The notes under the pieces were generated by a model. The model was not told where the DNA came from, ran no database searches, and saw only the letters and a program-made list of their open reading frames with translations. From Deltaproteobacteria bacterium (GTDB taxonomy: Bacteria; Desulfobacterota; Binatia; Binatales; Binataceae): a stretch of DNA of 64,000 nucleotides. Location: the NCBI GenBank assembly GCA_021780755.1, contig JAJXYF010000014.1, positions 31,888 through 95,887 of the forward strand. Direction: 5' to 3'. Within the stretch, counting starts at the first letter, position 1, and the number at the start of each line of letters is the position of its first letter. Positions 8,554 through 63,030 of the stretch are shown here, piece after piece. Both the position numbers and the translations under genes were made by a program.

Positions 8554-9756
8554 ATGAAGCCCGACGACAAGCCTCCGATTGACGCTACCGCACGCAAACC
8601 AATCGTACCCAATCGTCTGTATGCGCCCTACCTCGAAGCGTCGTGGGGCTTCAAGAACGCATGGTATCCGGCGCTTTTCAGCAGCGAAGTCGGCGAAAAT
8701 GAGGTCAAGGGCGTCACCATCGCGAGCCACGATATCGCGCTGCGCCGGGTGAAGGGGCGCGTGCACGCGATTCAGGATCGCTGTGCCCATCGCGGCGTCA
8801 AGATGTCGCTGCGGCCGACCTGCCTCACCGATGAAACCATCACCTGCTGGTATCACGGATTCACCTACGGGCTGAATGACGGCACCCTCAAGACCATCGT
8901 CGCGTCGCCCGACGATCCGCTGATTGGCCAGGTCCGCATCCGCACCTATCCGGTTGAGGAGCGCGCCGGAATCATCTTCGTTTTCGTCGGCGACGAGGAT
9001 TACGCGCCGGCGCCGCCGCTCACCGCCGACCTGCCGATTCAGATTACCGACGACGCGAATCCGGTCGCGCACATTCTCGATGCCCACGTTTACGTCCGCG
9101 GGATCCATCGCGAGGGCAACTCCAACTGGCGGATCGCGGTTGAAAACGGCTTCGACCCCGGCCATCTGCTGATTCATTGGGACAACGTCATCGTCGCGGC
9201 GACCGACCGGCGGATGGGCCTGGGCGCGCGCCCGATCGCCGAGGACGCGATCAAAATAATCGACGAGCCCAACGGTCCGCGCGGCATGATGAACATGTAC
9301 AACACGCGGGCGTACAAGTTCTTCATGGAAAACAAAGTTATCGGGATGAAGGCGCGCGGCAAGACGCCCTACTACGCGCGCACGTCGGTGTACCTGCCGG
9401 GGGTGCTGCTGGTCGAGCACTGGCCGGTGCCGGGATGGGCGCAATACGAATGGTACGTGCCGACCGACGACCGCCATCACGTTTATTGGGAGGTGCTGGT
9501 CGGTCATTGCCGCGACGACCAGGAGCGCCGCGAGGCGGACTATCTCTACGATCATTTTTTCGAGCCGCTGGCACTGCGCGATTTCAACGACAACGATGTT
9601 TTCGCGCGCGAGGCGATGCAGGATTTTTACGAGAATCGCGACGGCTGGAATGCCGAGACGCTGTGCGCGTTTGACGAATCGGTGATCATGTGGCGCAAGA
9701 TTGCGGCGCGCTTCAATCGCGGTATCCAGGACCCGCCGCATCGGCGCGGGCGCTGA
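8554..9756 (+). CDS. Rieske [2Fe-2S] non-heme iron oxygenase, alpha/catalytic subunit
   Basis: Rieske motif CAHRG...CWYHGF and mononuclear iron motif ENGFDPGHLLIHWDN. 400 aa. Confidence 0.85.
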   Translation: MKPDDKPPIDATARKPIVPNRLYAPYLEASWGFKNAWYPALFSSEVGENEVKGVTIASHDIALRRVKGRVHAIQDRCAHRGVKMSLRPTCLTDETITCWYHGFTYGLNDGTLKTIVASPDDPLIGQVRIRTYPVEERAGIIFVFVGDEDYAPAPPLTADLPIQITDDANPVAHILDAHVYVRGIHREGNSNWRIAVENGFDPGHLLIHWDNVIVAATDRRMGLGARPIAEDAIKIIDEPNGPRGMMNMYNTRAYKFFMENKVIGMKARGKTPYYARTSVYLPGVLLVEHWPVPGWAQYEWYVPTDDRHHVYWEVLVGHCRDDQERREADYLYDHFFEPLALRDFNDNDVFAREAMQDFYENRDGWNAETLCAFDESVIMWRKIAARFNRGIQDPPHRRGR

Positions 9757-9773
9757 CGCGGGAGACGTGGACG

Positions 9774-13494: not shown

Positions 13495-14709
13495 CTAGCG
13501 CCGCCGCTGCCGGGCGCGGGCCGCCTGCTGGGCGCGCATCGCTTCGGCCGGGGTCATGATGAGGCGCGGCTCTTCGCGCTGATGCTGTTCCTCCTCGGCG
13601 ATAATCGCGCCGAGTTGTGCGCGCATGAAGGCCTGGAAAAACGCCCCGCGCTTCAAGTCCGCACCGTCGCGCAGGCGCGCCGCGGCGGCCGCCGCCCACG
13701 CCGCCTGCGGCCGGCGTCCGGTGCGTGCGAAGTAATACGCGGTGTCCTCCAGATGGCGACGCAGGCGCGTACCGATTTCACCCGCAAGCAACTCCGCGAT
13801 GGCGCGCTCGACGACGGTGGCCACGCGATCTTCCTGCTGCACGCGGCTCAGCACGATCACGCTGTTGCGCAGGCCCGCGATCTCGTCCGCATAGGGTTTT
13901 ACGATCGCCGGCGCGATCGGCCATGCGGCGATTTCCGGCTCCTGCATCAGATCGGCCGATGGCTCGTGCGTCAGTTCGGCGGCAAATTCGTCGTAAACCG
14001 GATGACTGAGATCGATCGGCGGCGACTGCGCGATCAGTTCGGTGCGAAGCGCGAAGAAATTGCCGACCTCGCCACGATGCGACTCGGGCGTGCGGCGCCA
14101 GGCGTCGCACAAGATGAAGTCGGCGACGCGCCAATCGGCGTCGATCAGCGAAACTCCGGCGCGCCGTTCGAGGTCCGCGCGCTCATGGCGCAGCTCTTTT
14201 CGCGTGAGTGGGGCGAGCGTGATGCCGAACAGACCGTCGCGCTCCGAGACCAGGCCCCACAAGCGCTTCAGCCCCGCGCCCGGGCGCGCCTTGACGATCC
14301 AGACGACGCGCGCGCCGTCGGCGTCGGCGGGCGAGAGCAGGGCGCTCAGGCCGATTTCAGGCGCTTGCGCGGCAGCGGTCGGAACGTCGCGCGCGGGCAA
14401 CTCAGCGAGCGGCCCCTCGATGCCGCGCTGGCGCAGCTTGAACAGCGCGCGGCGAAGCTCGCGGCGGAGCCCACCGGCCGCGCGCGTCTCCATCCGCATG
14501 AGCATCGCGGCGGACTCCGGAGTGGCGATGCTCGTGAGCGCGCGCACCAGCGCGGCGTCGGTGACGCCGGATGCGCCGCGCAAGGCCGTGAGCTTTGCGA
14601 TCGCGTCGGCCGGCGGCGCCGCCGGATCGAAGCCCGCTTCGCGCAGCTTCGCGTCTTCACCCGCGATATCCTTCGGAGAGGTTTCCTTTACGCTAGCCAT
14701 CTTCACCAA
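13495..14709 (-). CDS. hypothetical protein (Ala/Arg-rich, no recognised domain)
   Basis: 404-aa ORF with good coding periodicity on the minus strand, co-directional with the CoA-transferase. The antisense 878-aa ORF 12214..14850 is a GC artefact. Confidence 0.5.
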   Translation of the reverse strand: MVKMASVKETSPKDIAGEDAKLREAGFDPAAPPADAIAKLTALRGASGVTDAALVRALTSIATPESAAMLMRMETRAAGGLRRELRRALFKLRQRGIEGPLAELPARDVPTAAAQAPEIGLSALLSPADADGARVVWIVKARPGAGLKRLWGLVSERDGLFGITLAPLTRKELRHERADLERRAGVSLIDADWRVADFILCDAWRRTPESHRGEVGNFFALRTELIAQSPPIDLSHPVYDEFAAELTHEPSADLMQEPEIAAWPIAPAIVKPYADEIAGLRNSVIVLSRVQQEDRVATVVERAIAELLAGEIGTRLRRHLEDTAYYFARTGRRPQAAWAAAAAARLRDGADLKRGAFFQAFMRAQLGAIIAEEEQHQREEPRLIMTPAEAMRAQQAARARQRRR

Positions 14710-42255: not shown

Positions 42256-43116
42256 ATGACCAAGGAGAATGAGACGAGTGAGAAAGCGGGCATCAAACCT
42301 GACTATGGGCAAAACCGCACTCTAGCCCAACTGGCGAGCCAGTTTTTTCCGCCGATCGAATTCAACATTGAATCTCTGACCCTATTCGAGCCGAAGAACG
42401 ACATTCAAACGCTCTCGACATATTTGAATTCGGTTTACTGGAAGCTCGGCCTCGCGGACTACCACGTATCAAAAGCGTTGTCAGCGATCCCGAGTGTCAT
42501 ACCTAATGATGAACCGAACAAGGGTAGCGCAGCATCGGCAATACACATGGCGTTAATGCGGGGTCACCACGACGAAGAAGTTGACCGTATGGAAATTGCG
42601 ATGCTTGAGACCGAAGCGCACGGTATTGCGGCGGCACAAGCGTTAGACTCAGTACCGGATATTCTATCGCAGGCTTTGTATCTCGCCCTTCGGCTCGACC
42701 TCAAGAAACCGATGCTTGAAGGTTTGCGAACGGTGCAGAGCGTTACGCAGGCTCTTGAGGACGCTGCTCTCAATTCTGTCAGCACGGGACTGAAGGAACT
42801 GGTCAACTCCGAAACATTTGAGTACCTGCGCGCGTTCGTGAACACCACAAAGCACCGAAGTTTGATCGACAACCTCTTCCACAGGTCACTTGTGGACTCG
42901 GAAGACTATGGTTTGACGATTTGCGCCTTCCGTTACGAGGAACGCAGCGGCAAAGTCAAAGGCTGGCCGTCTAAGACGTTCAAGGAATTTCTGGAATATA
43001 CGGCGGTCTACATGTCGGCGGCTGTGGGCGCGATCCTTAGAACCGCTGAAGGTCTGCTCGCCAGCTTTGCGGGCTGGCCTGCCGAGCGATTCTGGTTCAA
43101 GCTAGAAAAAATATGA
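42256..43116 (+). CDS. hypothetical protein, alpha-helical, in low-GC insertion
   Basis: 286-aa ORF with clear coding periodicity in a roughly 50% GC segment. No domain recognised. Confidence 0.55.
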   Translation: MTKENETSEKAGIKPDYGQNRTLAQLASQFFPPIEFNIESLTLFEPKNDIQTLSTYLNSVYWKLGLADYHVSKALSAIPSVIPNDEPNKGSAASAIHMALMRGHHDEEVDRMEIAMLETEAHGIAAAQALDSVPDILSQALYLALRLDLKKPMLEGLRTVQSVTQALEDAALNSVSTGLKELVNSETFEYLRAFVNTTKHRSLIDNLFHRSLVDSEDYGLTICAFRYEERSGKVKGWPSKTFKEFLEYTAVYMSAAVGAILRTAEGLLASFAGWPAERFWFKLEKI

Positions 43117-50097: not shown

Positions 50098-51057
50098 TCA
50101 ACTGAACAGCGAGCTGACCGACTCTTCATTATGAATGCGGCGAATGGCTTCCGCTATAAGGCTGGCGACCGAGAGCACCTTCAAATTCGAGAGCTCGGCC
50201 TGGGCTTTGGCCTTGAGCGGGATACTGTTGGTAGTGACCAGTTCCTTGATCACTGACTTGCCGATCCGCTCGCAGGCCGGGTCGGACAGTATCGGATGGG
50301 TCGCGCAGGCGATCACTTCGGTGGCGCCGGCGGCCATGATCACCTTGGCGGCCTCGGTGATCGTACCGGCGGTATCGATCATGTCGTCGATCAGGAGGGC
50401 GACCGAATCGCGGACCTCGCCGACCAGGTTCATCTCGGCGACCTCGCTGGCGCGCTGGCGGCGCTTGTCGATAATCGCGAGGTTGGCGTTGAGCCGGCGG
50501 GCAAAGGCGCGTGCCCGTTCGACGCCGCCGGCGTCGGGCGCGACGACGGAGACTTTCTTGTTGTCGATCTGGCGGCGCAGGTACTGCACCAGCACCGGCA
50601 TCGCGTAGAGGTTGTCCACCGGGATATTGAAGAAGCCCTGGATTTGCCCGGCATGCAGATCGACCGTTAGCACCCGTGAGGCACCGGCAGTAGTGATCAG
50701 GTCGGCGACCAGCTTGGCGCTGATCGGCACGCGCGGCGCGACCTTGCGATCCTGGCGGGAGTAGCCGAAATAGGGGATGACGGCGGTGATCCGTTTGGCC
50801 GAGGCGCGCCGGAGCGCGTCCATCAGCAGCAGCAACTCCATCAGGTTGTCGTTAGGCGGCGAGCAGGTGGACTGGAGCACGAAGCAATCGCCGCCGCGGA
50901 CGTTCTGGCGGACTTCGACCATCACTTCGCCGTCGGGGAAGCGGCCGACCTCGGCCTCTCCGAGTTCGACGTGCAGATGTTCACAGACCTCGCGGGCCAG
51001 CGCCGGGTTTGAATTGCCCGTAAAGATTTCCAGCTCGTCCTTGGCCCGTTCAGACAT
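50098..51057 (-). CDS. prs: ribose-phosphate pyrophosphokinase
   Basis: PRPP synthetase signature ([15 protein letters not shown]-binding loop [10 protein letters not shown]). Confidence 0.9.
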
Positions 51058-51170: not shown

Positions 51171-51246
51171 TGGCTGGGCGGGAAGGATTCGAACCTTCGA
51201 ATGCCAGGTCCAAAGCCTGGTGCCTTACCAGCTTGGCGACCGCCCA
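51171..51246 (-). tRNA. tRNA-Gln (anticodon TTG)
   Basis: 76-nt cloverleaf TGGGCGGTCGCCAAGCTGGTAAGGCACCAGGCTTTGGACCTGGCATTCGAAGGTTCGAATCCTTCCCGCCCAGCCA. 7-bp acceptor stem, anticodon loop CTTTGGA, encoded CCA. Very close to E. coli tRNA-Gln(UUG) as recalled. Confidence 0.85.
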
Positions 51247-51282
51247 GCAAAACCGCGTACGGTTCCGGAACTCGTCATCCAG

Positions 51283-51318
51283 AGGGCGTCCCCGTAACGC
51301 AAAGGGCGTCCTGTAACG
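51283..51318. repeat. tandem imperfect 16-17-nt direct repeat (AGGGCGTCCCCGTAACG / AGGGCGTCCTGTAACG), period 20
   Basis: Read directly from the sequence, 37-72 bp upstream of the tRNA-Gln 5-prime end. Confidence 0.5.
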
Positions 51319-51630
51319 GCCCGGCGAAACGCGCCGAGTTCCAAGCGCGATCGATCCGCCAGAAGGCAAACGAGCCCCGAAGACTCGCGCGGCGGACGAC
51401 GCGAATATCGTAACACAGATCGGCGATCGACTCGCTCGGCTTGTGATGGAGACGACGATTGGGCGCAGCGGCCTCACCTGATCTCCAACGCCGGTGCGGC
51501 TGCCGGGATTACCGCATCGCGATGTTATTTATGGCTCATTTCGGTGTCAATCTGAACCGCAATCAACGATTAACCCGACGGTCATATTAGGGTTGCTGAC
51601 GGAGCGAACTATCGTCCGATGATAGTTGGC

Positions 51631-53061
51631 TTAAGAGGTGGTCAAGATTCGGTAGTCGGTGATTTTTGGAACCATTGATCCGATTTCTTCAGGAGAAAAG
51701 CCGATTTCGCGCAGCAAACAACCCTGAATTATCAAACGAAGTAGCGAGGTAGCGCGAAACAGCTCGCGCCCGGTGAAGACGTCCGGGTTGTTATTATGGG
51801 CGTGCACGATCCCGCGATTGCGCGTCGCCACTGCACGTCTGATAAAAGTGTCCTCAACTAACGTACGAATGATTTCGGGCTGTTCATCATACAAATCTTG
51901 GAGACGACGACGCGCACTAGGCTCGTTACCGAGAATCTTCTCGTTGGCCCATTCGAACACTTCGGGATCTGTCTTGACAGATGACAGAAGCAACTCTCGT
52001 CGGCGCTTATATTCAGCGGGGTTCAATTGCTCGTTGCTATGTGTTGCCCGGTGATAGGCTTCACAAGCTACAAATGCACTGAAAAATCTAAATTCCAAGG
52101 GAACATCAGAGTCTAGTGGACCAGTGGAGAAGTGAAAGTCGAGCGTCGCAGGATATCGGTCACGGCCCTCCTGCCAACTGTTCATACGAGATGGGAGGGT
52201 AGCTCCCAGACCCATTGCAGAGAAGAGCATATTGGCCGGGTGTTTTCGATCGGGCAGCGGCACAGCCTTCTTTTGCGTAAACAGTATAGGCACGGGTACA
52301 GGCCAACTTTCGCCATTTGGCAAAAGTTGAACGAACCGCTTACTGGTGCCGATTAATGATGTCATTGGAACGCGAGAACTGGTTGCTAGTTGCAGGAAAT
52401 ATTGGAGCGATCTTACGGGACCATTCAGGAATTTATCGAGTGTTTGCACGTTAGGGGTCTTGAATCTAACTATGCTTTTCACCCTTACACCTGCGCTCGG
52501 TGGCATAACGCTGTGATTCCAAAGTCCATTAGACTCAGCAGATGCTTCGAACGAACCAATGCGGAACTTCAGAGGTGGCAGTTGCTGATAACGAATGCTG
52601 CTCTGATAAGGAGGCTCTGTCGAGGTGTCATGAACTATTCCGCTAGGGCCGATCCACTCCTCGAGATTAAACATTCCAACTTCGAGTTCATGGAAGGTGA
52701 CGGCGTCCGATGCCGGCAAATGTTCACCAAGCACCATCCAGTGGCTCTTGTATTGCGAGGTTTTTTCGCCCGATCCACTGAGCGAGGATTCGACCTCTAG
52801 AGAGCCAAAAAGAGACATTCCGTGGCCTTGTACCGTTCGCCCCCAGATTACCGTGTGATCCCCCAGCTTTGCTCGACGTGCACGCAAAGGATCTAACGTG
52901 CCAACGAGTTCTAAGTTGATCCCGTCCGTGGGAGAAAACATCAATCGACCCGGTATCGGCTCGCTGTCTTCCGTCCACCAGCGTCCCAGACATTCCCAGC
53001 TCTCGATCATGCTGAGTTGTGGAGGTGCGCCCTGGATCCCCGGTGCCTTGTCTTTAATCAC
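51631..53061 (-). CDS. hypothetical protein with C-terminal HEPN-like Rx4-6H motif (RNRGIVH); candidate ApeA-like abortive-infection/defence protein
   Basis: 476-aa ORF in a roughly 50% GC segment inserted between ispE and tRNA-Gln-prs. GTG start 53061, or ATG at codon 18; no obvious SD. Confidence 0.5.
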   Translation of the reverse strand: MIKDKAPGIQGAPPQLSMIESWECLGRWWTEDSEPIPGRLMFSPTDGINLELVGTLDPLRARRAKLGDHTVIWGRTVQGHGMSLFGSLEVESSLSGSGEKTSQYKSHWMVLGEHLPASDAVTFHELEVGMFNLEEWIGPSGIVHDTSTEPPYQSSIRYQQLPPLKFRIGSFEASAESNGLWNHSVMPPSAGVRVKSIVRFKTPNVQTLDKFLNGPVRSLQYFLQLATSSRVPMTSLIGTSKRFVQLLPNGESWPVPVPILFTQKKAVPLPDRKHPANMLFSAMGLGATLPSRMNSWQEGRDRYPATLDFHFSTGPLDSDVPLEFRFFSAFVACEAYHRATHSNEQLNPAEYKRRRELLLSSVKTDPEVFEWANEKILGNEPSARRRLQDLYDEQPEIIRTLVEDTFIRRAVATRNRGIVHAHNNNPDVFTGRELFRATSLLRLIIQGCLLREIGFSPEEIGSMVPKITDYRILTTS

Positions 53062-53231
53062 GTCGCGTGAAGCTCATAAGCGCTCGTCAAATATGGCTTG
53101 AAAGAGGCAGAATCGGTTCCTACCTTCTCGCGAACGCAGTGACGAGCGGCGATCCGAACATTTGCTGATCTCTGACGACCAAAGAGGGCTTAATTATATC
53201 GGTATAGCTGAACCGGATCGAACCGTTCGCC

Positions 53232-54107
53232 TCACCCGGCGTGGAAGATCGTGCAGGCGACGGCGGTGAGGGCGGGGTCACGGCGGCGAATTTCGGTGGC
53301 GGCACGTTCGGCGGCGGCGGGCGACTCGAAGATACCGAAGACACCGGCGCCGCTACCGGTCATCGCGGCGGCGCGCGCGCCAAGCTCTTCCAACTGACGC
53401 TTGGTGTGGGCGATCGCGGGCCATTGCGCCATCGCGACGCGGGCGAGGTCGTTGACGAAGAGATGAGGGGCGCCGGCGCCGGTCATAATCGCGCGCACGT
53501 CGGCGGCGGGCGCGGGGCCGCTCCAATGGTTGGGCTTTAAGGCGCGAAAGACGGCGGCGGTAGGGACCTGGAGCGGCGGGACGACGACTACCAGCGCAAG
53601 CTGCGGCAGGTCGCCAAGCGGCGCGATCCGCTCGCCGATGCCGGTCACCCGCGCCGGGACCGGATTAAGAAAGAAGGGCACGTCGGCACCGATTTTGAGC
53701 GCGAGCTGAGCGAGCCGCGCGGGTGCGTCAGCAGATTCGCGCCGGAACAGCGCGGCCATCATGAGCAGGACCGCCGCCGCGTCGCTTGAGCCGCCGCCGA
53801 GGCCGGCGCCGGCGGGAATCGCCTTGCGCAGATCGATCAGGACATCGGCGCTGAGCGTGAATTCGGCCATGAAGTCGAGGGCGGCGCGCACCGCGAGATT
53901 ACGGCGGTCGGTCGGCAGGTCGCCGAAGTTGCCGTGGATCATGACGCGCCGCTCAGGCGAGGTCCGCGCTTCGATCGAAATACGGTCACCGAGCGTGATC
54001 GGGACGAAGATCGAATCGAGTTCGTGGTAGCCATCGGGGCGCCGGCCGGTGACGCGTAGAAAGAGATTCAGCTTCGCCGGGGCGAAGGCGCTGCACAGCT
54101 TGACCAT
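53232..54107 (-). CDS. ispE: 4-diphosphocytidyl-2-C-methyl-D-erythritol kinase
   Basis: GHMP kinase motifs (PAKLNLFL, GAGLGGGSSDAA). Confidence 0.85.
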   Translation of the reverse strand: MVKLCSAFAPAKLNLFLRVTGRRPDGYHELDSIFVPITLGDRISIEARTSPERRVMIHGNFGDLPTDRRNLAVRAALDFMAEFTLSADVLIDLRKAIPAGAGLGGGSSDAAAVLLMMAALFRRESADAPARLAQLALKIGADVPFFLNPVPARVTGIGERIAPLGDLPQLALVVVVPPLQVPTAAVFRALKPNHWSGPAPAADVRAIMTGAGAPHLFVNDLARVAMAQWPAIAHTKRQLEELGARAAAMTGSGAGVFGIFESPAAAERAATEIRRRDPALTAVACTIFHAG

Positions 54108-59478: not shown

Positions 59479-61947
59479 TTGACGCCGTCAACGCGACGGA
59501 TGGAGCATTGGATGGTTCAGCGAGGCGCCTCACATACACTGGGGCCGGGCAAATATATTTTGCAGTTTCGGGCTCCGATCGGGCTGATACTGATTGCGAT
59601 CACGGCCTTTATGGGCTATTGGGCGGCGCACGTCCGGATCGCGACGAGCTTCGAAAACTTCTTCCCATCTAGCCATCAGAACACACTGCTGTACCGCAAA
59701 TTTCAGAACCAATACGGCGGTGCGCAAAGCTTATACGTGATGCTGCGGGTCAAGCACGGCGACATCTACAACGTCAAAACGCTGACGAAAATTCAGGACA
59801 TCACGAACGACGTCAACATCCTTCCGGGCGTTGACCACAATGAAGTTTTCTCGCTGGCATCCTATCGCGTGGCCTTCTCGCAGGCGATTCCGGGCGCCCT
59901 CATTGCGACCAACTATATGTATCCGACGGTGCCGACGACGCCGGCCAAACTCGAAGGACTGCGGCGCAATGTCATGACGCATCGGGAGCCCGTGCGGGGC
60001 CTGATCACGTCCGACGACAAGGGCGCGATGATCACGGCGAGCTTCAATGACCAGGGGCTCGACTACAAGAAGCTCTTCGATGATATCCAGGTGATCGTGC
60101 GCAAATACGAAGACGCCAATACGGACATCTTCGTCGCCGGCGAGCCGGTAATATCGGGGTGGGGCTACTATCATCTGACGCAGATCAAGGTCATCTTTCT
60201 GACCGCAGTCGCGCTCATGCTCATAATTCTCTACGTGAGCATCGGCGAGCGTAGCAGCTGGTGGGCACCGATTTTGACCGGGACTTTTTCCGCCGTCTGG
60301 GGTCTCGGGTTCGTCAGCCTCATGGGCTACAACTTCGACCCGGTGATGCTGGTCATACCGTTCATCCTGACGGCACGCGATCTCAGCCACGGAATCCAAT
60401 GGCAGGGGCGGTACTACGACGAGCTCGATCGCCTCGATGACAAGCTGCTCGCATGCGCGACTACGACCGACGTCATGCTGCCGCCGGGCCTGCTGTCGAT
60501 TCTCGCGGACATCGCGGGAATCATCTTTATTTCATTCGGCGGTATCCCGGTGCTGAAGGAGATTGGCTTCGGCGGCGCCATGTGGCTTGCCGGAAGCCTC
60601 ACGATGGTCTTTGTTTTCCAGCCAATTTTCATGAGCTATCTGCCGCGCCCGCGAATCCGCGGACGCAGTTGGCTGAGCCGCTATGGTAAAAGTGAGCGCA
60701 CGGGCATTTTGCATGGATTTGTAAATTGGCTGGTGAAGGTGCCGGTAACGCCGGGCTTCGCGCGATCGGTATTCCTTGCAGGTGGAGCGATCTTTATCCT
60801 GTTCGGCGTCATATCGGGACAGCGCGCACGAATCGGTTATCAAACCCCGGGTACGCCGCTCTATCGGCAGGATTCGAAGGTCAACCTAGACATCGCCGAA
60901 ATCGGCAAGTATTTCCCTACCGATATCGGCTGGGTGGTGCTGTCAACGGCGGATTATCCCGACCCGCAATCAAGTATCGGTCCTGACGTCCTGCGGATGA
61001 CCGATGACCTTGCGGCTTATTTGATCGGTCGTGGTGATGCGGTTGGGGTAGCGTCGTTCACGAACATCGCAATGAAGCCGCTCAACATGATGTTCCACAA
61101 CGGCTATCCGAAATTTCAGAGTATTCCGGCGGGAACCGAGTTGGGCGGCAACCTCTGGTACATGTTCCTGGGCGGTACCGCGCCGGGCGAAATGGAACGG
61201 TTCTTCGCCCATTCCCCCCATATGACCAGTACGTGCATCCGCGTATTGCTGCCGGATCACACCTTCAATCGACTCAATGCGGTCCGGGATGATATCAAGA
61301 AATTCATCGACGAGCGAGTGACGCCCGACCCGGGGCTATCGAAAATTACGGTTCACTACCTCGGCGGCGTCGCGGGGCTTTATCTGGCAGCCAATGACGT
61401 GCTCTACCGCCTCGACATCATCAACCTGACGTTCGTGCTGCTGGTCATTTTCCTTTGCTGCGCGTTCAGCTTTCAGTCGATTACGGCGGGAGCGCTCTTC
61501 ATCGTTTCGTGCGTGATGGCAAACTTCGGCGCCTTCATCTACATGAATGCGTTCAACATCGGACTGACTATCGATACTATCCCGGTGATCTCGCTTGGAA
61601 TCGGCCTTGGTGTTGACTACGGCATTTATACCGTCGCCCGCATCCGCGACGAGGTGATGGGCGGGGCGTCAATCGATGAGGCGGTTGAAATCGCACTAAG
61701 CAGCACCGGCGCTTCGGTCTTCAGCACGTTCGCCGTGATGATCGGCGGGATTCTACCGTGGGCATTTTCGCCGCTGCTGTTCCACAACGAGATGAGCGTG
61801 CTGCTGATTTTCCTGATGGCGACCAACATGATCGCGGGAGTGTTGATTCTGCCAGCCTACATTGCATGGCGTCGGCCCTGTTTTATCGTGCGCTATGAAG
61901 CCACTGGCGGAGCGAAGGGCCGGATGGCACACGCAACGGCCAGTTGA
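59479..61947 (+). CDS. RND-superfamily exporter, MMPL/HpnN-like (two 6-TM SSD-type modules)
   Basis: 822 aa with two large periplasmic loops and 12 TM helices. RND/MMPL pattern. Start codon uncertain (ATG 59479/59500/59512). Confidence 0.75.
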   Translation: MTPSTRRMEHWMVQRGASHTLGPGKYILQFRAPIGLILIAITAFMGYWAAHVRIATSFENFFPSSHQNTLLYRKFQNQYGGAQSLYVMLRVKHGDIYNVKTLTKIQDITNDVNILPGVDHNEVFSLASYRVAFSQAIPGALIATNYMYPTVPTTPAKLEGLRRNVMTHREPVRGLITSDDKGAMITASFNDQGLDYKKLFDDIQVIVRKYEDANTDIFVAGEPVISGWGYYHLTQIKVIFLTAVALMLIILYVSIGERSSWWAPILTGTFSAVWGLGFVSLMGYNFDPVMLVIPFILTARDLSHGIQWQGRYYDELDRLDDKLLACATTTDVMLPPGLLSILADIAGIIFISFGGIPVLKEIGFGGAMWLAGSLTMVFVFQPIFMSYLPRPRIRGRSWLSRYGKSERTGILHGFVNWLVKVPVTPGFARSVFLAGGAIFILFGVISGQRARIGYQTPGTPLYRQDSKVNLDIAEIGKYFPTDIGWVVLSTADYPDPQSSIGPDVLRMTDDLAAYLIGRGDAVGVASFTNIAMKPLNMMFHNGYPKFQSIPAGTELGGNLWYMFLGGTAPGEMERFFAHSPHMTSTCIRVLLPDHTFNRLNAVRDDIKKFIDERVTPDPGLSKITVHYLGGVAGLYLAANDVLYRLDIINLTFVLLVIFLCCAFSFQSITAGALFIVSCVMANFGAFIYMNAFNIGLTIDTIPVISLGIGLGVDYGIYTVARIRDEVMGGASIDEAVEIALSSTGASVFSTFAVMIGGILPWAFSPLLFHNEMSVLLIFLMATNMIAGVLILPAYIAWRRPCFIVRYEATGGAKGRMAHATAS

Positions 61948-62036
61948 TTACGTTGACATGTCTGCTTGGCGGCCGCCGTCCAGTTACCTACCGCAAGCGC
62001 GGCGGGCAGGATGAGGTCGCCTGCTATTGGCATTAC

Positions 62037-62699
62037 TTACGAGGGTGACCAAATAGCGAAGAGTTCTGCATCCACGCCGCCCCTGTTTTCGAAGCGGTGT
62101 GGTACTATTGCCTTTATGTGAAGCGTGTCCCCCTCGCGGAGAACCTCTTGTTTGCCGCGCACCCAAAAATCGACAGTTCCCTTCTTACAGATGAATAAAA
62201 TCTCCCCGCTGAAGCCGAGAGGCCTGCCACTACGGCCCCGGGGGGGGATCTTGGCCAGATATGCCTCCATCTTGGGCTCCTGAAGAGCTTCAGCGATATT
62301 CTGAATCCGGATGCGAGATCCGGTCGAGTGTGATTTGGCGGAATCAGCGCGGATTATTCTGACATCAACCGGACTGTCATCTTCACCAAGCAAATGGCTC
62401 GCGCGCAGGCGCAGGGCCTTGGTAACCTTAACGAAAATTTCGATCGACGGTACTAATCGTCCTGCCTCAATCTTCTGAATCGTAGCTGCTGACACTCGAG
62501 CTTGCTCGGCAAGCTTGCGAAGGGTCAGTCCACGCTCTAGGCGTGCACGCTTCAGACGTTGGCCGAGGCTGTCAAAATTTCCTTCCGCGCTTTCTTTGGA
62601 GGCGCGCGGCGTCGAAATCGCACTGTTCAAGGTTTCAATTTCCGCCAAATGTTTGGCCATATTAATTGCGAGTTCTGTTGGTACTGCAAACCGCTCCAC
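62037..62699 (-). CDS. XRE-family HTH transcriptional regulator with C-terminal cupin domain
   Basis: HTH LTLRKLAEQARVSAATIQKIEAG, and a cupin beta-barrel tail (GEILFICKKGTVDFWV...GDTLHI). Confidence 0.8.
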   Translation of the reverse strand: MERFAVPTELAINMAKHLAEIETLNSAISTPRASKESAEGNFDSLGQRLKRARLERGLTLRKLAEQARVSAATIQKIEAGRLVPSIEIFVKVTKALRLRASHLLGEDDSPVDVRIIRADSAKSHSTGSRIRIQNIAEALQEPKMEAYLAKIPPRGRSGRPLGFSGEILFICKKGTVDFWVRGKQEVLREGDTLHIKAIVPHRFENRGGVDAELFAIWSPS

Positions 62700-62945
62700 G
62701 TCCTATATCGGAAAATACAGGTTCGAAAGGTGCTTTATGTTTCATCACGAGAATGCTTTAGGGTACCAGAGAAATCACTCTCCATGAAATCCCACCTAAC
62801 GATGCCCCGTTCGCGAATCACGTAAACATCGCCCTCATTGGATTCCAAAACAAGTCCGCATTCTTGTCTCGAATCATACCATTCCTGTTTCTGATTGAAG
62901 ACAGAAAAGGATTTTGATAGAAGGGGTGTATAACGCACGCCAGTT

Positions 62946-62974
62946 GTGGCGCGTCACCAATCGGTTGGCGCCAC
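62946..62974. promoter_or_regulatory. inverted repeat GTGGCGC-N15-GCGCCAC in divergent intergenic region
   Basis: Read directly from the sequence. About 57 bp upstream of the DUF1329-like start, in the AT-rich spacer shared with the XRE-cupin regulator gene. Confidence 0.3.
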
Positions 62975-63030
62975 GCTGGGGGCAAAGGTTCAACGCGATT
63001 TTGCGGCCGCTTGCGGCTCAGAGGAAAAGT

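Follow-up and report, generated by a model that had tools for sequence, protein, structure and literature searches.

In an uncultured Binataceae bacterium, how did a single gene of low GC content come to lie among housekeeping genes, and what might its product do? Within the window that we analysed (the whole stretch of 64,000 nucleotides), the gene order on the minus strand is ispE, an open reading frame (ORF), tRNA-Gln, prs and ctc, the ORF being the only gene of a low-GC insert between ispE and the tRNA-Gln/prs/ctc genes. An earlier note on this DNA had read the arrangement as an interruption of the ispE / tRNA-Gln-prs-ctc neighbourhood by a candidate mobile anti-phage or toxin module, reminiscent of the ApeA type. 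Both the gene order and the position of tRNA-Gln(ttg) agree with an interruption of this kind, and the further parts of that description are taken up below. The neighbours of the ORF are housekeeping and not defence genes.

A foreign insert upstream of tRNA-Gln

The genes on either side are native, with ispE (a GHMP kinase gene; 53232..54107, minus strand) upstream of the insert, and tRNA-Gln(UUG) (anticodon ttg; 51171..51246, minus strand) and prs (ribose-phosphate pyrophosphokinase; 50098..51057, minus strand) beyond its other end. The insert itself is DNA foreign to the host. The low GC reported earlier for the ORF was borne out, with a GC content of 0.510 and a GC at third codon positions (GC3) of 0.520, against a GC3 of 0.737-0.871 in eight neighbouring genes (dnaE, phosphoesterase, ctc, prs, ispE, orf132, meaB and metallophosphatase). 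Measured over 300-bp segments, GC falls to 0.47-0.56 over positions 51400-53200 compared with 0.61-0.72 to either side, and the insert is the GC minimum among all 1.5-kb pieces of the window (0.509; mean 0.633, sd 0.039).

The foreign DNA spans about 1,630 bp (~1.63 kb; 51578..53207, GC 0.512) and is made up of the gene with approximately 197 bp of non-coding DNA ahead of it and approximately 53 bp downstream. Its left edge lies between the ispE stop (53232) and ~53207, and its right edge at ~51578. The island had originally been drawn as 51247..53231; of this, ~51578..53207 is foreign, whereas 51247..51577 (331 bp, GC 0.60) is native promoter and leader sequence shared with relatives that lack the gene. 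The promoter (sigma-70-like, TTGACA-17-TAACAT; 51522..51550, minus strand) lies upstream of tRNA-Gln and is kept in all Binataceae relatives having tRNA-Gln at that place; the insert adjoins its upstream side and leaves it undamaged. Between promoter and tRNA lies a 275-nt leader (51247..51521, minus strand), which is likewise outside the island and aligns with the relatives' contigs L083 and L091. The leader matched no Rfam family and showed no conserved consensus structure, and a riboswitch or other structured RNA was therefore dropped as a candidate there.

The expected presence/absence polymorphism in the ispE-prs interval was found among related genomes. The interval from ispE to tRNA-Gln measures 1,985 bp here versus 120-385 bp in most relatives, and two contigs, L083 and L091, present an empty site: both align to the window on either side of the insert and lack the insert itself; the Prs protein of L083 is identical to that of the window. 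In all, the gene is missing at the same site in nine related Binataceae loci (L003, L004, L005, L006, L008, L009, L010, L083 and L091), all of which have kept this tRNA with its promoter and the genes on either side, so that the gene is neither universal at this position nor, with its GC3 of 0.520, of ordinary composition. The occupied site was recovered as identical copies in four samples, and DNA identity to the window is 100% for L082 and 99.98% for L084. One of the nine loci, L006, carries another small low-GC gene (DUF2247) at the same site, an observation suggesting that the spacer between ispE and tRNA-Gln takes up assorted cargo. Two other loci, L002 and L007, were at first considered as evidence of an insertion hotspot and were dropped, since there the gene order after ispE merely differs.

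As to the mode of insertion, the single ORF of the insert has no transposase or integrase domain, no inverted pair of repeats links the two ends, and the insert does not lie in a tRNA 3' end, being situated ~330 bp upstream of the 5' end of tRNA-Gln and beyond its promoter. When L083 is used as the reference, an 8-bp direct repeat, CGGTTCAG, is seen at both junctions, the left copy (53208..53215, minus strand) in native DNA just after ispE and the right copy (51552..51559, minus strand) within native sequence, where 18 bp separate it from the right edge of the foreign DNA. The window contains 5 occurrences of this 8-mer, and an 8-mer was shared between random junction-sized zones in 0.9-2.6% of trials. 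Its reading as a target-site duplication or transposition scar, the one we adopted at first, is not convincing, since homology of the native DNA with L091, L003 and L008 carries on for 18 bp after the right copy and such a repeat is no more than weakly improbable. We infer the mobility of the gene from its absence in relatives and its foreign composition, and to this extent the description as 'mobile' stands; no mobility gene and no convincing insertion scar accompany it.

The open reading frame and its expression signals

The ORF described earlier (51631..53061, minus strand; 476 aa from a GTG) is present and intact, its stop codon occupying 51631..51633. The most likely start is the ATG at 53010 rather than the GTG at 53061, which gives a coding sequence for a protein of 459 aa (51631..53010, minus strand). 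We prefer this start because the first Met of the homologues falls at M18 of the 476-aa form (44 of 77 aligned homologues) and because the alignment begins at query residue 17-25 in most of 150 relatives. Public gene calls on identical DNA give 476, 459 and 395 aa; what might pass for a truncated 395-aa allele (L082, L084) is a mere difference in start call, given the DNA identities above. We also discarded the idea that the ORF is the remnant of a longer N-terminus, such as the DUF6575 fusion of the homologue P0002, as the frame is closed by a stop codon five codons before the GTG.

The absence of a Shine-Dalgarno sequence was confirmed by sequence inspection before both the GTG at 53061 and the ATG at 53010. 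Upstream of the ORF no sigma-70-like promoter was found on its strand, and no terminator-like site was found after its stop; a hairpin at the latter place, considered as a terminator or attC-like element, was not significant (z = -1.2). Putatively, the ORF may be expressed by read-through from ispE. It has no neighbouring partner gene either in the insert or in the flanks, as the earlier note had held, and in particular no MNT (nucleotidyltransferase) antitoxin ORF is found there.

Domains, motifs and predicted fold

Residue numbers of motifs and domains refer to the 476-aa form, and those of the AlphaFold2 (AF2) model to the length of the 459-aa form. The N-terminal half matches Pfam ApeA_NTD1 (PF18862; aa 23-296, 52174..52995, minus strand) over the whole profile (1-271 of 271; 91.7 bits against a gathering cut-off of 25.5, E 7.5e-26), and the C-terminal part, where the suspected HEPN similarity was indeed detected, matches HEPN_Apea (PF18739; aa 328-458, 51688..52080, minus strand; 76.7 bits against a cut-off of 24.4, E 3.1e-21). 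A near full-length match was obtained with the PADLOC PDC-S58 model PDLC05048 (E 4.8e-55; aa 22-470 against 4-446 of 461 profile positions). On these profile matches the window protein is a member of the ApeA_NTD1 + HEPN_Apea family (PF18862 + PF18739), which is PADLOC PDC-S58. NCBIfam has no matching model for the window protein or for Ec1ApeA, the ApeA discussed below.

The AF2 monomer model (pLDDT 94, pTM 0.91) agrees with this division. Residues 1-250, for which beta-strand is predicted almost throughout, would form the presumed sensor or regulatory half, while residues 265-459 are helical, with the helical fold of the HEPN superfamily, in the half predicted to act as an RNase. Neither the protein nor a 77-sequence profile matched any solved structure by sequence, and Foldseek returned no match at E <= 1e-3 against PDB or BFVD. 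For the N-terminal half, which would be made up of small beta-barrels, the sole neighbours in structure are PilZ (c-di-GMP binding), Hcp and phage tail-tube folds.

The putative catalytic motif is the R-N-R-G-I-V-H that runs from R414 to H420 (51802..51822, minus strand), lying within the TRNRGIVHAH originally singled out as an Rx4-6H motif. In a 77-sequence alignment its Arg is invariant (77/77) and its Asn is present in 72/77. The His stands at R+5 in 74/77 members, the exceptions being the window protein, P0002 and P0003, which have Val or Ala there (Val in the window protein) and His at R+6. We regard this Rx5H spacing as a conserved variant because P0002 and P0003 keep it at only 55-58% identity, and it falls within the HEPN Rx4-6H definition. 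A further motif, E-A-Y-H-R (E334, H337, R338; 52048..52062, minus strand), perhaps part of the active site or of a pocket, belongs to the first long helix of the HEPN part; its Glu is invariant and its His and Arg are present in 75/77. Within ApeA_NTD1, G26, G38 and G74 are invariant and W28 nearly so. The window protein retains all invariant residues of the family; in the GxWWLP motif it has Glu in place of a nearly invariant Pro.

The ApeA_NTD1 + HEPN_Apea family

This family is also known as the 'ApeA/BMEI1217' HEPN family, having an N-terminal domain of ~300 aa made mainly of beta strands, to which the AF2 model of the window protein conforms, and having members embedded in restriction-modification (R-M) operons (Anantharaman et al. 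2013, PMC3710099). The PDC systems were nominated from their embedding in BREX, DISARM or type I R-M loci and are candidates only (bioRxiv 10.1101/2024.01.29.577857). In the searchable literature we found no published experiments on members of the family. It is large, with 3,117 cluster representatives at E <= 1e-3 (clusters defined at 50% identity), mostly of 450-480 aa, and its distribution is patchy and includes plasmids, where members adjoin IS21, IS66, an integrase, BrnT/BrnA or another HEPN gene. In 5 out of 5 other contexts family genes have a lower GC than the host locus. The subclade of the window protein is sparsely sampled, only P0002 and P0003 exceeding 50% identity and the next relative standing at 35%. 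No homologues were found in phage records or PHROGs, and no close relatives in JGI metagenome contigs by peptide-pattern search.

With its family the window protein shares both domains at full length, the near full-length PDC-S58 match, the typical length (~460 aa), the beta-rich N-terminal half, the invariant Arg, the Rx4-6H motif and a low GC relative to the host. It differs in its Rx5H spacing, with the His shifted by one, and in the Glu for Pro in GxWWLP. The gene also differs in sitting among housekeeping genes and not within an R-M, BREX or DISARM locus, proximity to which is a contextual tendency of the family rather than a requirement for membership.

Comparison with validated ApeA and other HEPN systems

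The ApeA of Gao 2020 (Ec1ApeA, WP_116319148.1) is reportedly an experimentally validated anti-phage system. The description of the window protein as 'ApeA-type' holds in the Pfam and 2013 sense, in which ApeA_NTD1 + HEPN_Apea equals PDC-S58, but not in the sense of Gao 2020, to whose ApeA we detected no kinship by HMM or hhalign. The sole match of Ec1ApeA (L090:3001-4806) is the PADLOC 'ApeA' model PDLC02157 (1389 bits), and neither it nor four of its relatives match Pfam ApeA_NTD1 or HEPN_Apea. Conversely, the window protein does not match PDLC02157 at E <= 10, and hhalign gave a probability of 0.6% against Ec1ApeA and 0.45% against an 18-sequence Ec1ApeA family profile.

Ec-type ApeA forms a ring (decamer or dodecamer) of five or six HEPN dimers and is activated through a conserved pocket, situated between its N-terminal and its HEPN domain, which binds a 5'-phosphorylated deoxydinucleotide (pdNG) or a phage RNA structure, whereupon tRNA anticodon loops or phage genomic RNA are cleaved (bioRxiv 10.64898/2026.01.26.701840, 10.64898/2026.03.20.713152). 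What the window protein has in common with it is a single polypeptide with a C-terminal HEPN domain bearing an R-N...H motif and a non-catalytic N-terminal half, and probably also the logic of a sensor half that governs a dimeric HEPN nuclease. The two differ in length (~600 aa there, 459-476 aa here) and in the N-terminal region, which in the Ec1ApeA-type model is all-alpha (residues 1-206) and followed by an alpha/beta middle domain (213-322), whereas here it is all-beta. The ring, the dinucleotide/RNA pocket and the tRNA or phage-RNA targets belong so far to the Ec-type family alone. Bm1ApeA (467 aa, the 'minimal' ApeA of the RNA-phage preprint) was considered as a protein of the same type as ours and is not evidently one, its first 133 residues (Table S5) having neither a Pfam match nor the GxWW signature.

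Other HEPN systems differ in how the nuclease is controlled. HepT of HepT/MntA (PDB 7ae2, 7ae8, 5yep) is a minimal HEPN toxin of ~140 aa under a separate MNT antitoxin gene, whereas the window protein, which lacks a partner gene, carries a 270-aa domain fused in cis. Among further abortive-infection nucleases that are single proteins or contain HEPN, AbiA, AbiD/AbiF and the anticodon nucleases PrrC/RloC have other sensors, such as the reverse transcriptase of AbiA and the ABC ATPase of PrrC/RloC, and at the sequence level no membership of the window protein in these families was found.

Proposed function and alternative explanations

We consider it likely that the insert was acquired by horizontal transfer and that its one gene encodes a self-contained anti-phage or abortive-infection HEPN toxin. 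On this proposal the Candidatus Binataceae lineage would have gained the 1.6-kb one-gene segment horizontally, the segment coming to rest after ispE, in the spacer ahead of the tRNA-Gln/prs/ctc promoter. The C-terminal half, with its Arg/His motif intact, would serve as the ribonuclease module and the beta-rich N-terminal half presumably as a sensor or autoinhibitory part. Two HEPN domains would pair to create a composite metal-independent RNase site, in an enzyme that would remain silent for as long as its N-terminal half receives no infection cue. Once active, it would cleave the anticodon loops of tRNAs or some other RNA of cell or virus, and translation and phage growth would stop. Other single-protein HEPN systems do work in this way (bioRxiv 10.64898/2026.01.26.701840, 10.64898/2026.03.20.713152). 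A defence role has further indirect support in the R-M, BREX and DISARM embedding noted for the family and the PDC systems, in the neighbours of the plasmid-borne members, and in the low GC of family genes relative to their host loci. Against the defence reading we count the missing homology to validated ApeA, the shifted His, the Pro-to-Glu replacement, the undetected Shine-Dalgarno sequence, promoter and terminator, the housekeeping neighbours, and the lack of homologues in phage records and PHROGs.

An identity of the window protein with ApeA in the experimental sense, complete with HEPN-dimer ring and dinucleotide/RNA pocket, would be suggested by the common name and layout, by a C-terminal HEPN domain with an R-N-x-x-x-x-H type motif, and by an invariant Glu that closes the first HEPN helix in both families, helices that hhalign pairs, albeit without significance. 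We nevertheless judge it improbable, given the lack of shared HMM matches (PDLC02157 versus ApeA_NTD1/HEPN_Apea), the near-zero profile-profile probability, the all-alpha against all-beta N-termini, and published pocket residues that fall in a domain without counterpart in the window protein. A selfish or orphan toxin gene, that is, an RNase of addiction or competition that gives no phage protection and is kept as hard to lose or recent, is in our view unlikely. In toxin-antitoxin and polymorphic-toxin systems HEPN domains are common as toxins (PMC3710099), the ORF has no companion among the housekeeping genes around it, and the DUF2247 gene in L006 indicates a site that accepts assorted cargo; however, no antitoxin or immunity gene adjoins the ORF, and therefore an unregulated toxin would kill its host. 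The fused, conserved 270-aa N-terminal domain also suggests regulation within the protein itself, like that of single-protein defence systems, and the family was flagged through its embedding in R-M, BREX and DISARM loci.

The undetected expression signals and the Val at the canonical His position of the family could also be taken to mean that the gene is an inactive relic, recently transferred and either unexpressed or impaired in its active site by the shifted His. This we hold to be highly improbable, for the 459-aa frame is intact and modelled at pLDDT 94, every invariant residue is kept, the same Rx5H occurs in P0002 and P0003 within the Rx4-6H definition, and identical copies were recovered from four samples. 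Finally, the ORF shares the strand of tRNA-Gln and directly precedes its promoter, a position that might point to a housekeeping RNA-processing enzyme tied to that tRNA. Such a reading is effectively refuted by the empty sites, as nine related loci without the gene keep the same tRNA, promoter and flanks, and the foreign codon usage and the patchy, partly plasmid-borne distribution of the family also argue against it.

Returning to the defence reading that we favour, one may tentatively go a step further, to a possible though rather doubtful view of PDC-S58 as a separate single-protein immune family, convergent with validated ApeA in layout and equipped with a different sensing device, to which the Binataceae subclade would add the Rx5H variant. 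If so, the beta-barrel half might sense a nucleotide messenger or a phage structural protein instead of the deoxydinucleotide and RNA cues of Ec1ApeA and Ec2ApeA.

The Pfam 'ApeA' domains do not match the protein behind all of the ApeA mechanism work, and the ring, dinucleotide and tRNA mechanism could therefore be wrongly transferred to proteins of the present kind by annotation pipelines and readers alike. As a find the gene is ordinary: an uncultured soil bacterium has yielded one further gene predicted to act in defence. The insert, on the other hand, is a clean natural one-gene foreign insertion with occupied and empty sites in relatives, and as such offers a compact, well-bounded construct; for a family of more than 3,000 clusters at 50% identity with no published experiment that we could find, the window protein, modelled with high confidence, is a reasonable entry point.

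A low-GC gene between ispE and tRNA-Gln

On the minus strand the window holds an uninterrupted ORF at 51631..53061 (476 aa counted from GTG), and the gene order on that strand is ispE, the ORF, tRNA-Gln, prs and ctc, with tRNA-Gln(UUG) at 51171..51246 (-) in the same orientation as the ORF. GC content is 0.47-0.56 over ~51400-53200 versus 0.61-0.72 either side, and the minimum among all 1.5-kb windows of the 64 kb (0.509; mean 0.633, sd 0.039) lies at the ORF stretch. The gene itself has a GC of 0.510 and a GC3 of 0.520, versus a GC3 of 0.737-0.871 in eight neighbouring genes. No Shine-Dalgarno sequence was found ahead of either candidate start (GTG 53061 or ATG 53010), the gene's own strand carries no sigma-70-like site ahead of it, and no terminator-like site was detected for it. 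The earlier note had described this low-GC ORF, its neighbourhood, the missing Shine-Dalgarno sequence and a TRNRGIVHAH motif in the product, all of which our data bear out; taken as a whole, we judge that call to have been correct and well reasoned.

In public annotations of identical DNA the predicted protein has 476, 459 or 395 aa, and the shortest is no truncation, since another contig (L082) shows 100% DNA identity to the window across 6 kb. The most likely start is ATG 53010, giving 459 aa, because a Met aligned to M18 begins 44 of the 77 members in our family alignment, and because for most of the best 150 relatives the alignment begins at query residue 17-25. GTG 53061 is the alternative, preceded five codons earlier by a stop codon, and the nine residues ahead of M18 have only 'PPQL.M' in common with a close homologue, P0002.

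Family membership, fold and catalytic residues

The product matches Pfam ApeA_NTD1 over the full profile (aa 23-296, E 7.5e-26), HEPN_Apea at aa 328-458 (E 3.1e-21), which supplies the C-terminal HEPN similarity that the earlier note had proposed, and the PADLOC candidate family PDC-S58 over nearly its full length (E 4.8e-55). PADLOC 'Cas13-ApeA' models also match its C-terminal part, and NCBIfam and PHROGs gave no match. These profiles place it clearly in the Pfam/PDC-S58 family, for which an exhaustive HMMER search found 3,117 cluster representatives at E <= 1e-3 (1,212 at E <= 1e-10), mostly of 450-480 aa. Only two proteins, P0002 and P0003, exceed 50% identity to it, and the next relative stands at 35%. 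An AlphaFold2 model built from 77 relatives (mean pLDDT 94, pTM 0.91) is nearly all beta-strand over residues 1-250 and helical over residues 265-459. Foldseek found nothing at E <= 1e-3 in the PDB and viral models, with tail-tube and Hcp entries weakly listed.

Across the family alignment the HEPN motif Arg is present in 77/77 sequences, the Asn that follows it in 72/77 and a His at R+5 in 74/77. The window protein (RNRGIVH), P0003 (RNKGVVH) and P0002 (RNRRIAH) depart from this pattern, with Val or Ala in the R+5 column and the His one position later. As identity among these three carriers is only 55-58%, the Rx5H spacing is, on the alignment, a conserved subclade feature inside the HEPN Rx4-6H definition. 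The HEPN half has a further conserved motif, E-x-Y-H-R, on its first long helix (E334, H337 and R338 when numbered on the 476-aa form).

P0002 (L086:178-2417; 611 aa, 58% identity) is the nearest homologue outside the source population and carries an additional N-terminal DUF6575 domain. A 133-aa ORF ends 2 bp ahead of its gene, and both genes have a GC3 below that of their neighbours; the system may occur here in a two-gene or a fused form.

Two families named ApeA

The mechanistic work on ApeA concerns Ec1ApeA, the experimentally validated protein of Gao 2020, and its relatives, which form decameric or dodecameric rings and confer HEPN-dependent abortive infection through cleavage of tRNA anticodon loops, and which possess an allosteric pocket that, in Ec2ApeA, binds 5'-phosphorylated deoxydinucleotides (bioRxiv 10.64898/2026.01.26.701840). 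Ec1ApeA also cleaves the genomes of ssRNA phages non-abortively when triggered via the same pocket (bioRxiv 10.64898/2026.03.20.713152). We took the full gene (L090:3001-4806, +) from an E. coli genome by means of the first 399 nt in Table S5 of the latter (bioRxiv 10.64898/2026.03.20.713152). Its product matches PADLOC 'ApeA' PDLC02157 at 1,389 bits and no other model, and neither it nor four relatives match Pfam ApeA_NTD1 or HEPN_Apea at E <= 1-10. The window protein, in turn, has no match to PDLC02157, and its probability of homology to Ec1ApeA is 0.6% (profile versus sequence) or 0.45% (profile versus an 18-sequence Ec1ApeA-family profile). A model of the Ec1ApeA-type protein P0154 (pLDDT 85) is all-alpha over residues 1-206, followed by an alpha/beta middle domain and then helices, consistent with the ApeA preprint, whereas the N-terminal half of the window protein is beta-rich.

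Given the lack of shared HMM matches, the low homology probabilities and the differing N-terminal folds, we treat these as separate families that have in common only a general design, with a HEPN nuclease joined to a sensor half. The earlier description of the protein as ApeA-type thus holds for the Pfam/PDC-S58 family, but profiles and models give it no demonstrable membership of the validated one. 'ApeA' is a naming collision, and the mechanistic literature is not simply transferable to the window protein. The RefSeq name for Ec1ApeA is 'HEPN family anti-phage protein ApeA', no model of NCBIfam release 20 matches it, and its relative P0158 bears the UniRef name 'Apea-like HEPN domain-containing protein' despite having no Pfam HEPN_Apea match.

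Occupied and empty sites

The host is a Candidatus Binataceae member whose best ispE matches in a species-level genome collection are 50-61% identical. In the relatives that keep the ispE/tRNA-Gln/prs/ctc order (L003, L004, L005, L008, L009 and L010), the ispE-to-tRNA-Gln gap is 121-385 bp, versus 1,985 bp in the window. Closer still is L083, whose Prs protein is identical to that of the window and whose DNA is 92.8% identical over tRNA-Gln/prs/ctc and 85.8% over ispE; it has 248 bp at the place of the window's 1,948 bp. L091, with an ispE protein 75% identical, also lacks the gene, and the same occupied arrangement was assembled, identical, from four separate samples. The gene is therefore present in one lineage and absent in that lineage's nearest sampled relatives, and is neither universal at this position nor of ordinary GC3. 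In two further Binataceae MAGs (L002, L007) this order is lost: genes for small, Cys-rich proteins of secreted appearance and unrelated genes follow ispE, with no tRNA-Gln or prs within 8 kb downstream.

When aligned to L083 the insert is bracketed by an 8-bp direct repeat, CGGTTCAG, at 53215..53208 and 51559..51552. We rejected these copies as its exact borders, as native sequence extends past the right copy in other relatives. The 8-mer occurs 5 times in the window versus 2.4 expected, and 0.9-2.6% of random 20-30-nt zone pairs spaced 1,650 bp share an 8-mer; for all these reasons we do not take the repeat as explained. The element TTAATYGTTG, native just upstream of the tRNA-Gln promoter in L003, L008 and L091, is found in the window at 51577..51560, so native DNA restarts at ~51578, 18 bp before the right copy. 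The element is missing from L083, whose empty site may therefore have arisen by secondary deletion between the repeat copies; L091, for its part, looks as though it was never occupied.

The foreign segment accordingly runs from about 51578 to 53207 (1,630 bp, GC 0.512), and the remainder of the island drawn earlier at 51247-53231 includes native promoter and leader at 51247..51577 (331 bp, GC 0.604). The promoter-like TTGACA-17-TAACAT at 51550..51522 (-) is the region's best site (10/12 matches) and is conserved in all Binataceae relatives examined. The insert sits upstream of this promoter and not at the tRNA 3' end. Of the proposed mobile module, the foreign insert stands, but transposase, integrase and terminal inverted repeats were all absent from it. 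Since the conserved promoter lies 230-300 nt upstream of tRNA-Gln in all these relatives, the tRNA leader is unusually long; in the window (51247..51521, -) it matches no Rfam family, and no secondary structure is conserved in it.

A possible defence role

Support for a role in defence is indirect. The PDC systems of PADLOC, termed '145 untested phage defence candidates', were picked for their position within loci of BREX, DISARM or type I R-M (bioRxiv 10.1101/2024.01.29.577857), and a 2013 HEPN survey describes members of this family embedded in R-M operons (PMC3710099). One paper lists a PDC-S58 gene without a test of it (PMC11514479), and we found no experiment on NTD1-type proteins in the searchable literature. 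Distant members (22-24% identity) occur in eight plasmid records, where their only annotation is 'HEPN domain-containing protein'; the three plasmid neighbourhoods inspected contain transposases (IS21, IS66), an integrase of phage type, BrnT/BrnA and another HEPN gene. In 5/5 other contexts the family gene has a GC below that of its host locus. The relative P0004 also stands alone, flanked by the genes for GTP cyclohydrolase I and ribose-5-phosphate isomerase. The gene in the window is a further member of an already known, bioinformatically defined family, to which we add corrected borders, an occupied/empty site pair, the Rx5H subclade feature and the limit on the ApeA literature.

Our data establish the family membership, the fold, the catalytic residues and the insertion; dimerisation, activity, trigger, target and phenotype we infer, by analogy with HEPN nucleases in general, as follows. 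Two C-terminal HEPN domains would pair to form a composite Arg/His site able to cut RNA metal-free, the conserved beta-rich half would hold the enzyme off before infection, and RNA cleavage would then cause translation arrest or destruction of viral RNA. We consider this defence explanation, taken as a whole, reasonably probable.

The alternatives are all unlikely by comparison. The gene might be a selfish toxin with no defence role, against which the R-M operons noted for its family speak. Less likely still is the Gao-type ApeA mechanism, for which the common general design speaks and against which the family separation stands. A housekeeping enzyme is very improbable, given the absence of the gene from the nearest sampled relatives. 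Were the gene an inactive relic, the displaced His could be read as decay, and the open frame and its retention in diverged proteins as the opposite. Among these, defence by RNA cleavage is the reading that we prefer.

Other low-GC patches

A different low-GC single gene (~0.50 versus 0.61-0.69) occupies the same spacer in another Binataceae genome, on the opposite strand (L006:8902-9474, -; the end of ispE is at 8879, and tRNA-Gln lies at 9762). Its 190-aa product matches DUF2247 (Pfam E 2.9e-15) and nothing in PADLOC, and with this gene at the same site the spacer has gained small foreign cargo at least twice.

Elsewhere in the window, a 96-nt 'tRNA-His' called by ARAGORN at 14550..14645 (+), with its anticodon at position 39, is probably a false positive, as Rfam gives neither tRNA nor another family there at E <= 1. 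Between hflX and dnaE, GC falls in a second patch (0.53-0.55), which contains a lone 286-aa ORF at 42256..43116 (+) with no Pfam or PADLOC match, which may be another small foreign insert. The third and milder patch (61400..63000, 0.52-0.56) contains an HTH and cupin regulator at 62037..62699 (-), whose PADLOC matches (capH, RmrA and others) are restricted to the generic HTH region.
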